A stretch of 17,869 nucleotides of DNA from positions 1-17,869 of the forward strand of contig JAYTNF010000169.1 of NCBI GenBank assembly GCA_043748455.1, in the 5' to 3' direction. Below the pieces are notes generated by a model. That model saw nothing but the letters and a program-made list of their open reading frames with translations, searched no databases and had not been told where the DNA came from. The DNA comes from Cytophagales bacterium (GTDB taxonomy: Bacteria > Bacteroidota > Bacteroidia > Cytophagales > Thermoflexibacteraceae). The position numbers were made by a program, and so were the translations under genes. This document shows positions 11,923 to 14,056 of the stretch, one piece after another (positions within the stretch are counted from its first letter, which is position 1; the number at the start of each line of letters is the position of its first letter).

Positions 11923-12909
11923 TTAGCTAAATTTTAGTTGATGTCCCTGTGTCCCTTTACTTTTATTACCATTTATTGCCATAGAACCTTTATGATTATT
12001 TTCTTTCACCTCTGCGTTATGGAATTCAAAATCACTGTGCAAAGTGTCCATTGATAAATACTTTATAATCCCTGTGGCTTTATTTCTTGGCTCGAATACA
12101 AGTCTATTATTTTTAGATTTCAAATAAGAATTACGTTTCCAACCATTTATTAAGGCAACTTTTTCGCCTAATAGTTGCTTTGTGTTATGATGCTCTGTAT
12201 AAATTTCAGGTGAATATTTTTTACCATCATACTTAACTTCTGTATAAGCATCTAAAAATAAATTAGATAAATCTTTCAATGGAAGTACATTTGTAGTATC
12301 TATTTTCCAATGATTAAAATCAAAATCTGTTTTTAGTTTTATGCTTTCAACTTTTGATACAAGTTTATCAAAAACCTTTTTGTCATCTACAATACTTTGC
12401 ACAACTGCATATAAATAAAAATTTTGTATATCAGACAAGTCTTCTATACTTTTTAGGGTTACAAAAGTTACTTTTTGATTATTTGTATCTTCTCTCAATA
12501 TATGAATATTACCATAACGAGCATCACACTTATCAGAAATATCAATTACAAAAAATAATTCATCAGGATTTAATAGTTTTCGTTCACAACATTCTGCAAT
12601 AGACGTTTTATTTATTGTTTCTTGATTTGAAAGGGACAGAGGAGAAGTATAATTAATGCTTGATTTTTGAACCGTATTTTCTTCCCAATCAACAAAACAC
12701 CTTGTTTGTTGAGTATCAAACATAGCATTTATTTTTGTATTCAAATCTAGGTTTCCAACATTCAAAATAAGTAAATATTCTTGAATATCAAGCCATTTGC
12801 TCATAGAAACAAGCACCTCCTGATTTTGCTCATCAAGTATATCATATAAGTCAAACAGAAAATCCTTTTTGTTTTCAGAGAAACTTCTATCATTTAGAAA
12901 TATTTGCAT
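11923..12909 (-). CDS. Hypothetical protein (about 328 aa from MQIFLNDRSF, or 348 aa if translation begins at 12969). It is the third gene of the TRD-DUF262 / ATPase operon and a possible effector. I recognised no domain.
   Basis: ORF from the track. Its 5' end overlaps the upstream ATPase gene by 20 bp (start 12907-12909) or 80 bp (start 12969), which implies translational coupling. The sequence is mixed alpha/beta and Cys-containing (AECCERK...DKCDARYG), with no Walker motif or nuclease motif visible by eye. Confidence 0.6.
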   Translation of the reverse strand: MQIFLNDRSFSENKKDFLFDLYDILDEQNQEVLVSMSKWLDIQEYLLILNVGNLDLNTKINAMFDTQQTRCFVDWEENTVQKSSINYTSPLSLSNQETINKTSIAECCERKLLNPDELFFVIDISDKCDARYGNIHILREDTNNQKVTFVTLKSIEDLSDIQNFYLYAVVQSIVDDKKVFDKLVSKVESIKLKTDFDFNHWKIDTTNVLPLKDLSNLFLDAYTEVKYDGKKYSPEIYTEHHNTKQLLGEKVALINGWKRNSYLKSKNNRLVFEPRNKATGIIKYLSMDTLHSDFEFHNAEVKENNHKGSMAINGNKSKGTQGHQLKFS

Positions 12910-14056
12910 TTTTCTTTTTTTCCTTAAAAAGTTGATTAACATCGAGATTATACTGTTGGAAAAAATCATCTTCCCATTCTTTAATAAAACCGTCTTCTTG
13001 TAAGATAATTTCTGTTACTATGCTATTTTGTCCAAGTAAATTACGCTTAAAGAAAAATATTTTAGTTTTATCCAAATCTAATGTTTTCTTAGCAACAGCT
13101 AAACGAGCACCATTAAATATATGCTCACTATGTGTTTCACAAAAAATCTGCACGCCATTTTGTGCAGCCAAACACATTAATTCGGCAAGTTTTGACTGCC
13201 CTTTTGGGTGTAAGTGTGATTCGGGGTTTTCTATGATAAGTAAATCTCCTTTTTCTGCGGTTAGTAAAGCTAAAATTACAGAAAAAACATAACTCACACC
13301 AAAACCTACATTTTTAGGTTTGAAAGCTATGGTTGTATCTTCTATTTGGCTTTCATTGAGAAAACGAAACTTATATTCAACAGCTATTTTTGTGCTATCA
13401 TTTTCGTCATAATCAGCTTCTACCATAATATTAGGGCTGATTTCACTTAACCAAGCATTAATTTGGTCTTTGATTAAATTAGAAGTAGCCTTAGAGTGTT
13501 TTAAACTTTCGTGTGAAATCGGTGTTAATCTATTTTTTACAAAATATTGCCAAGCATATTCTCCTGTTTTACCAAAATCTTTATTTTCTAGTTTTTTATT
13601 ATCTGTATTATATCTGCCTTCATCACTTATTCTTTCTGCTTTTAAGTATTGGAACTTTTTAGGCGAAAAAATAGCTTCTTGTTTAGTATCTGTTTTTAAG
13701 ACAGAACTTTTAACTGAAACTTGGTTATTCTCCTTATTACTTTCAGAGTAACCAACAGTTTCAATATTTATTTTCTGTTCGTTAATATCAAAAATAAATT
13801 TAATAGAATTTTCTTTTTTATCAAATAAGAAAAAAATTGCATCTTTATATGTGCCAATATCTATATATTCTCCTTGCAGATTTATATTTTTTTCTTTTTT
13901 TGATAGTGTATCAGAAGATTGCCTAAGTAAAAGTAGACTTTGAATTACAGAAGATTTGCCAACACCATTCAAACCCGTCAAAATATTCAAATTTGCACAA
14001 TTTATTTCAATGTCTTTTAAGGATTTGAAATTCTTTATGTGTATATTATTTATCAT
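12890..14056 (-). CDS. AAA_21/ABC-type (OLD/RloA-like) ATPase of 388 aa, with a DUF3696-like C-terminal region.
   Basis: The N-terminus IHIKNFKSLKDIEI...LNILTGLNGVGKSSVIQSL carries the Walker A motif GxxGxGKS. GDLLIIENPESHLHP matches the Walker-B/D-loop region of AAA_21-family proteins (hhhhE-N-PE..LHP). CETHSEH matches the H-loop. A 4-bp ATGA overlap with the upstream gene lies at 14053-14056. Confidence 0.8.
   Translation of the reverse strand: MINNIHIKNFKSLKDIEINCANLNILTGLNGVGKSSVIQSLLLLRQSSDTLSKKEKNINLQGEYIDIGTYKDAIFFLFDKKENSIKFIFDINEQKINIETVGYSESNKENNQVSVKSSVLKTDTKQEAIFSPKKFQYLKAERISDEGRYNTDNKKLENKDFGKTGEYAWQYFVKNRLTPISHESLKHSKATSNLIKDQINAWLSEISPNIMVEADYDENDSTKIAVEYKFRFLNESQIEDTTIAFKPKNVGFGVSYVFSVILALLTAEKGDLLIIENPESHLHPKGQSKLAELMCLAAQNGVQIFCETHSEHIFNGARLAVAKKTLDLDKTKIFFFKRNLLGQNSIVTEIILQEDGFIKEWEDDFFQQYNLDVNQLFKEKKKNANISK

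Follow-up and report, generated by a model that had tools for sequence, protein, structure and literature searches.

The window analysed here, a stretch of 17,869 nt from a Cytophagales bacterium (Thermoflexibacteraceae; assembly GCA_043748455.1, contig JAYTNF010000169.1, positions 1 to 17,869 of the forward strand), carries an operon of three co-oriented genes on its minus strand (15594–11923), the third of which had been called unannotatable in an earlier note made from the sequence alone. In this Cytophagales-type Bacteroidota genome, profile searches, structure models and comparison with related loci identify the third gene almost certainly as nsnC, which encodes the effector of a Menshen (NsnABC) anti-phage system of Type II. 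Moreover, the C-terminal domain of its product (~93 residues) is very likely a colicin-E3-like ribonuclease (RNase) domain of the BECR fold. The genes of the operon, and the parts of nsnC that matter most for this assignment, are as follows.

14053 to 15594, minus strand: nsnA, 513 aa, proposed sensor subunit, ParB/DUF262 (GmrSD_N) domain with an extra N-terminal domain of ~140 aa
12890 to 14056, minus strand: nsnB, 388 aa, ABC-type ATPase (AAA_15/AAA_21) with a DUF3696-like C-terminal tail, proposed transducer
11923 to 12909, minus strand: nsnC, effector gene of 328 aa, stop codon (11923–11925) included
12310 to 12909, minus strand: N-terminal domain of NsnC (N-domain), adaptor (aa 1 to ~200)
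11926 to 12204, minus strand: C-terminal domain of NsnC (C-domain, aa 236–328), very likely a colicin-E3-like BECR RNase and the predicted toxic output
12019 to 12048, minus strand: predicted catalytic motif D288-T-L-H291-S-D-F-E295-F-H297, from profile alignments with colicin E3

Menshen was reported by Millman et al. 2022 and dissected by Li et al. 2025 (PMC12065111). According to the latter, NsnA is a ParB-DUF262 plus ParBDB sensor, to which 'Type II' systems add a further, optional N-terminal domain, NsnB is an ABC ATPase with a DUF3696 tail, and NsnC joins an N-terminal inactive-PIN-like adaptor (35 inPIN families catalogued) to a swappable C-terminal effector (15 families, nine of them BECR RNases). 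The published complex model is NsnB4–NsnC2, and phage protection has been demonstrated solely for the Menshen system of Solibacillus silvestris (PMC12065111).

The product of the first gene matched the PADLOC NsnA profile (E = 7.3e-91; aa 141–512 on profile positions 28–383 of 385) as well as Pfam GmrSD_N (8.4e-14 at aa 181–327), and its translation contains QRxxxxW-like (FQRKSGLW) and DGxQR (DGLQR) motifs. Since the NsnA profile match begins at residue 141, the protein has about 140 extra N-terminal residues, which correspond to the published Type II architecture; this segment (window 15175–15594, minus strand) yielded no Pfam match. The second product matched PADLOC NsnB over practically the entire model (1.3e-101, 339 bits, profile positions 1–344 of 345), with AriA (98 bits) and GajA (67 bits) far behind and PtuA not among the 25 best PADLOC matches listed. 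In Pfam it matched AAA_15 (3.3e-26) and AAA_21 (1.6e-24), together with a borderline DUF3696 match (21.3 bits vs. a 22-bit cut-off). For the third product, searches of Pfam and NCBIfam with the protein returned no match; two PADLOC models for NsnC did match, i.e., PDLC03917 over the C-terminal ~110 aa (2.3e-8) and PDLC03889 over the N-terminal ~150 aa (3.5e-5), so that "unannotatable" was an overstatement. Several hallmarks of Menshen are found at the locus: gene order and packing (the nsnA stop and nsnB start overlap by 4 nt, and nsnB and nsnC by 20 bp), an NsnA with its ParB/DUF262 domain and coverage of the C-terminal part of the NsnA profile, an NsnB, and a predicted C-terminal nuclease domain in NsnC. 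The profile matches and the 4- and 20-bp overlaps also bear out the proposal that the gene is the third, tightly coupled member of a defence operon with an AAA_15/AAA_21 ATPase.

NsnC belongs to a rare family. Scanned exhaustively with HMMER, 1.84 billion representatives yielded 15 homologous proteins at E ≤ 1e-3, a word-indexed search returned three close relatives (six with a profile), and a locus search with a five-sequence alignment returned only two loci, both in Cytophagales metagenome-assembled genomes, from which the close relatives come as well. In the eight independent contexts examined (loci L001, L009, L010, L012, L013, L014, L016 and L018), nsnC invariably lies directly after an NsnB-type ATPase gene, and a GmrSD_N/NsnA gene precedes the ATPase gene in all seven contigs that extend far enough (L001, L009, L012, L013, L014, L016 and L018). 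At the nsnB–nsnC junction, homologues show anything between an overlap of 20 nt and a gap of 3 nt. Neither of the two outcomes that the earlier note had named as telling against its reading was seen: no housekeeping family was matched, and nsnC always kept company with the ATPase gene. The ratio of non-synonymous to synonymous substitution rates (dN/dS) of nsnC was 0.22–0.30 in comparisons with relatives at 82% and 89% identity, for both halves of the protein, save for a value of 0.45 in one comparison of the C-terminal part that comprised few changes; nsnC is under purifying selection and is a real gene. On L001 the same cassette sits between the succinyl-CoA ligase and adenylosuccinate synthase genes, a different chromosomal neighbourhood, which indicates that the cassette moves as a unit.

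Within NsnC, conservation was read from a 17-sequence family alignment, in which 13 homologues include the N-domain. The invariant residues N255, N267, R269, D288, E295, H306 and G308 all lie in the last ~75 residues, with P210 in the linker as the only addition, and A252, G256, W257, T289 and H297 come close to invariance. For the C-domain the consensus reads VA.INGW..N..LS..NNR.VF.P......YL..DT.HGDFE.HN....NHLG.ISF.G.K.K....H.LKF. An AlphaFold2 model of the full-length protein was confident (pLDDT, the predicted score of the local distance difference test, of ~90) over residues ~200–328 and poor over residues 10–74, and a model of residues 236–328 alone reached a pLDDT of 90.9, and in it a long helix precedes a sheet that is mainly antiparallel. 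The best two structural matches of this C-domain were colicin E3 and the CdiA-CT toxin of Enterobacter cloacae (CdiA-CT(ECL)), ahead of every BECR structure that acts on transfer RNA (tRNA) or messenger RNA (mRNA); both cut 16S ribosomal RNA (rRNA) at A1493/G1494 with a site of the His/Glu/Asp type.

Profile comparison pointed in the same direction. With hhalign, the C-domain profile scored 57.5% against the single colicin E3 sequence and 89.1% (E 2.2e-6, 41 columns) against a colicin E3 family profile built from 18 members. Residue numbering follows chain 1e44_B of the Protein Data Bank (PDB), residues 456–551, to which the colicin E3 domain sequence used is identical. In this numbering, D288/H291/E295/H306/G308 of NsnC pair with D510/H513/E517/H526/G528, and the strings ..DTLHSDFEFH..NHKGS.. 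of NsnC fall on ..DSQHGELEGY..QHLGS.. of colicin E3, i.e., on D510-S-Q-H513-G-E-L-E517-G-Y. We take Asp510, His513 and Glu517 (plus Arg545) to be the catalytic residues of colicin E3, with residue numbers as in Walker et al. 2004 and Ng et al. 2010; chain 4v5k_AY differs from the wild type at exactly the position of His513, consistent with this numbering. The triad itself has been described as His/Glu/Asp (PMC2615495). D288 and E295 are invariant in the NsnC family, and position 291 is either His or Lys; the same H/K variation occurs at the His513 equivalent within the colicin E3/pyocin S6 family (P0041, DSRKGELE). Arg545 probably corresponds to H323, where family members have H or R; this equivalence was placed by eye outside the hhalign alignment. 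Contrary to the statement that the protein has no recognisable motifs, the invariant and near-invariant residues of the C-domain align with the catalytic core of colicin E3. Pfam PF09000 ('Cytotoxic') was matched below threshold by three of the 17 family members (best E 0.0021), and is the sole Pfam family matched by more than one of them. We read the C-domain as a divergent homologue of the colicin E3/CdiA-CT(ECL) clade of BECR RNases and not as a formal member of PF09000.

Several observations weigh against this reading. The link to PF09000 is transitive and sub-threshold, and the NsnC of the window itself has no PF09000 match and reaches no Pfam threshold. The hhalign alignment covers 41 columns only, which is the catalytic core, and position 291 (window 12037–12039) is Lys in five of the 17 family members. 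Foldseek with the full-length model against the PDB found nothing at E<0.1. When PDB sequences were searched with profiles from the full-length and C-domain alignments, only chance-level matches came back (E>0.3), i.e., GspE, 4wcx (associated with biotin/thiamin synthesis) and a cathepsin K propeptide. For the N-terminal half, the AlphaFold2 model, poor at residues 10–74, did not confirm a PIN-like nature. RNase activity, substrate, contact between NsnB and NsnC, and phage protection are all predictions from sequence and models.

The identity of the RNA substrate is where competing explanations fare best, since similar cores are found in BECR enzymes whose RNA targets differ widely, which also counts against a colicin-E3-like specificity. 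NsnC could then be a Menshen BECR RNase that acts on tRNA or ribosome-bound mRNA, in the manner of RelE/YafQ/HigB or of colicins D and E5, and might fall within one of the families that Li et al. call 'PB-BECR'. Indeed, PB-BECR1, the C-domain of archetypal NsnC, is YafQ-like (PMC12065111), and only the 41-column catalytic core aligns with colicin E3, the ribosome-contacting N-terminal segment being unmatched. We nevertheless hold such a substrate to be rather unlikely, as the clade has only two 16S rRNases of solved structure and these are the best two structural matches, the D-x2-H-x3-E...H-L-G signature is that of colicin E3, and PF09000 is the sole recurrent Pfam match in the family. That 16S rRNA is the actual substrate would, on this analysis, have a chance just short of even.

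A second competing explanation concerns the N-domain, the adaptor that has been described as an inactive PIN (PMC12065111). NsnC might be a dual nuclease, in which an active N-terminal PIN-like domain contributes to, or even dominates, toxicity; a 2026 preprint (10.64898/2026.08.28.747851) disputes the 'inactive PIN' label for BECR-Tox2-type NsnC, which is another family, and the AlphaFold2 model does not resolve the fold of this domain. The alignment nevertheless makes this improbable. Across the 13 homologues with an N-domain there is no invariant acidic residue, a conserved Asn stands where a PIN domain has its first Asp (FLNDRS / FINELS ...), several members have Y, Q or S in place of E106, and the invariant polar residues all lie in the C-domain. 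Between Menshen alleles the N-domains are unrelated in sequence.

The earlier suggestion of a novel effector fold in partnership with its ATPase, as in Septu, PARIS or Gabija, which might here mean a nuclease for DNA or a protein that binds metal through its cysteines, could draw on the blank Pfam/NCBIfam result and on the secondary similarity of the ATPase to AriA, GajA and PtuA, but we consider it very unlikely: the cysteines are not conserved, the C-domain is confidently modelled as a BECR fold with the colicin E3 motif, the ATPase matches NsnB far better than any of these three, and a ParB/DUF262 NsnA gene precedes it. The Cys strings AECCERK and DKCDARYG are indeed present in the NsnC of the window. 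Their cysteines are already lost in part in P0003, a relative at 82% identity (AECAKRK), and all more distant relatives lack Cys at these positions, so that they do not form a motif and a metal site was rejected. As to the ATPase–effector pairing, the gene very probably does encode the nuclease partner of the ATPase; the system is the three-gene Menshen, not a further unnamed pair.

A final alternative places the translation start further upstream. The longest nsnC open reading frame (ORF) has 348 codons (11923–12969, minus strand), and two starts had been put forward: 12969, which gives an 80-bp overlap with the ATPase ORF, or ATG 12909 (MQIFLNDRSF), which gives a 20-bp overlap. The segment between them is the following.

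12910 to 12969, minus strand: in-frame upstream extension MIFSNSIISMLINFLRKKRK, 60 nt, identical to the nsnB 3′ end in another frame

Homologues agree on the downstream start. The NsnC of the window and two close relatives (89% and 82% identity) are called at 328–330 aa with the N-terminus MQIFLN, more distant homologues begin with M(QI)x(I/V)F(I/L)N..S within ~3 residues of the Met at 12909, and no homologue in the alignment carries the 20-residue N-terminal extension. In addition, position 1 of the PADLOC model PDLC03889 falls on residue 21 of the 348-codon ORF. Three close loci differ by three substitutions in the 60-nt extension; each of them is synonymous for NsnB and would change the residue encoded in the extension frame, and the sole substitution in the 20-bp overlap is synonymous for NsnC; these numbers are small, and all are concordant. 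The region upstream of 12909 is also very A-rich (AAGGAAAAAAAGAAAA), and A-rich upstream sequence favours translation initiation in Bacteroidota. Translation from ATG 12969 (348 aa), alone or as a second isoform, has a very low probability: this codon is in frame and kept in three close relatives, but its conservation follows from its location within the conserved NsnB codons GAT-GAT. Because homologue N-termini, PADLOC profile position and substitution patterns agree, the comparative sequence data place the nsnC start at ATG 12909, with a predicted protein of 328 aa. The ORF coordinates, both candidate starts and the two overlap lengths had been given correctly, and it is only the ambiguity that does not stand, the start not being truly ambiguous.

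Together, the model of Menshen in the literature (PMC12065111) and the biochemistry of colicin E3 suggest how such an effector might be controlled. NsnA, with its ParB/DUF262 and DNA-binding domains, would sense phage DNA, and an NsnB ATPase tetramer would grip the variable N-terminal PIN-like domain of NsnC via its DUF3696 tails, with the RNase kept silent. This hold by NsnB would replace the missing immunity protein. Activation would release or switch on the RNase domain of NsnC, leading to RNA cutting, and the RNA cutting would shut down translation and abort the infection. Taken as a whole, the account of NsnC as a Menshen effector with a colicin-E3-like RNase, held by NsnB and released upon infection as proposed here, appears likely.

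Comparison with the metagenome contig L009 revealed a related cassette at the same chromosomal position. The slot between a PIG-L-family gene and a Peptidase_M50B gene holds a Menshen cassette in both the window (11856–15640) and L009 (3890–7040). The M50B flank protein is 97% identical between the two, and the PIG-L-family gene and a terminator hairpin are also kept. The cassettes themselves differ considerably: the NsnA of L009 has 286 aa, lacks the N-domain and is 29% identical over 176 aa, its NsnB is 40% identical, and its NsnC can be aligned in the toxin domain only, at 34% identity. DNA homology ends ~15–25 nt before the nsnA ATG, just past the TATATTTG box, and restarts immediately after the nsnC stop, as if recombination in the conserved flanks had exchanged the operon as a whole. 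NsnB is alignable only to residue 338 of 388 (tail, 12890–13040, unaligned) and NsnC only in its C-domain (N-domain, 12310–12909, unaligned), so that the two proposed contact partners have diverged together. This co-divergence of the DUF3696 tail and the NsnC N-domain fits a contact between them. With cassettes 29–40% identical in nearly identical chromosomes, the pair provides a concrete example of Menshen domain swapping.

The upstream flank of the operon contains two further elements.

15619 to 15626, minus strand: TATATTTG box, candidate promoter element, 24 nt upstream of the nsnA ATG
15679 to 15711, minus strand: hairpin (15-bp stem, then a T-run), directly after the upstream PIG-L-family gene

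The -7 promoter element of Bacteroidota has the consensus TAnnTTTG, and the TATATTTG box is a candidate for such an element. It is kept in L009, where the DNA downstream of it has diverged, and is the last conserved sequence before the cassette alleles part. A scan for sigma-70 promoters returned fewer sites than in shuffled controls, the sigma-70 model being uninformative for Bacteroidota. The hairpin is the terminator of the PIG-L-family gene and the upstream boundary of the Menshen transcription unit. Its stem is perfect, and two compensatory base-pair changes in L009 support a functional, possibly bidirectional, terminator. On the other side of the operon, the next gene downstream is that for Peptidase_M50B, 67 nt past the nsnC stop, and no immunity gene of the Im3 or CdiI type lies beside nsnC in this 67-nt interval. 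The Peptidase_M50B gene is a conserved chromosomal flank.

The remainder of the window holds several other genes. An 828-aa protein (8462–10948, plus strand) has major-vault-protein domains (MVP_shoulder 3.7e-31, Vault_3 6.7e-10) and is a bacterial homologue of the major vault protein; it is adjoined by an ordinary signalling protein, a 740-aa 7TMR-DISM receptor fused to a SpoIIE/PP2C phosphatase (5914–8136, minus strand). Two divergent paralogues of 198 and 199 aa (4504–5100, minus strand, and 5233–5832, plus strand) are 54% identical and share a D...EAK motif; one of them has a weak PDDEXK_12 match (E 0.0077), and they may be a PD-(D/E)XK nuclease pair. Finally, positions 1–4326 (minus strand) are part of a gene for a bacterial alpha-2-macroglobulin of 1839 aa (bMG3, MG2, A2M; gene table of the parent contig, L007) that runs past the end of the window.

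Among known defence systems, Septu (PtuAB), PARIS (AriAB) and Gabija (GajAB) share with the window an ABC/AAA_15-21 ATPase and a nuclease effector that is presumably restrained by it, and the Menshen literature draws the same analogy (PMC12065111). They differ in that their effectors are of the Toprim, HNH or UvrD type, whereas that of the window is a predicted BECR RNase, in that the ATPase of the window scores far higher for NsnB than for AriA or GajA, and in that the window has a third gene for a ParB/DUF262 sensor. Membership in these systems was rejected, as NsnC matches no PtuB, AriB or GajB model. An SspFGH-like system was likewise rejected, the SspFGH paper mentioning neither DUF262 nor DUF3696 and SspH being FtsK-like.

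BECR-Tox2 is also a BECR RNase, and one that mostly occurs as the C-terminal domain of Menshen NsnC; it has an N-terminal extension with a conserved KH motif and a His near beta4 (10.64898/2026.08.28.747851). The C-domain alignment has no conserved KH in its first ~15 columns and shows the D/H/E motif of colicin E3 instead, and membership was rejected. With Menshen itself, the window shares the order of NsnA (ParB/DUF262), NsnB (ABC ATPase, DUF3696) and a two-domain NsnC. Its NsnC, a member of a rare family, has only profile-level similarity to the PADLOC NsnC models, and its C-domain is predicted to be colicin-E3-like whereas that of the archetype is YafQ-like (PB-BECR1, a BECR fold with an H-R-H triad; PMC12065111). 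The general published picture of Menshen is unchanged by this analysis, and what was a 'hypothetical protein' acquires a specific, testable function, namely that of a colicin-E3-like RNase effector of Menshen in Cytophagales.

The toxins CdiA-CT of Enterobacter cloacae and colicin E3 bear the closest resemblance to the C-domain. The former (Ntox21; PDB 4NTQ) is a colicin-E3-like 16S rRNase. 'Ntox21', citing the E. cloacae CdiA-CT, is among the listed C-terminal families of NsnC (PMC12065111), and because Li et al. already list this colicin-E3-like rRNase type, a ribosome-directed Menshen effector is not new in principle. Pfam Ntox21 gave no match at E ≤ 10 in any member of the NsnC family, compared with three for PF09000, and by sequence the family appears nearer to colicin E3 than to Ntox21. 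A more daring proposal, which we advance only tentatively, is that the rare NsnC clade might be a distinct colicin-E3/'Cytotoxic'-type 16S rRNase family outside the 15 catalogued, nearer to PF09000 than to Ntox21. It would act inside the cell with no immunity protein, a ribosome-killing enzyme that NsnB alone silences until infection; Menshen would then work here by abortive infection through ribosome inactivation, and would be an instance in nature of a colicin-type toxin gated by an ATPase. Colicin E3 (PF09000; PDB 1E44, 4V5K), the best structural match, shares with the C-domain the signature D-x2-H-G-E-x-E ... H-L-G, with D288/H291/E295 as the predicted equivalents of its catalytic D/H/E. 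Its N-terminal ribosome-contacting segment (GFKDYGHDYHPAPK...) has no counterpart in NsnC, which also lacks its translocation and receptor domains and an Im3-type immunity gene; the domain is instead intracellular, fused to the NsnC adaptor domain and below the Pfam threshold. Should the 16S rRNA target be confirmed, it would mean that an ATPase can keep a colicin-type ribosome toxin harmless without a dedicated immunity protein.

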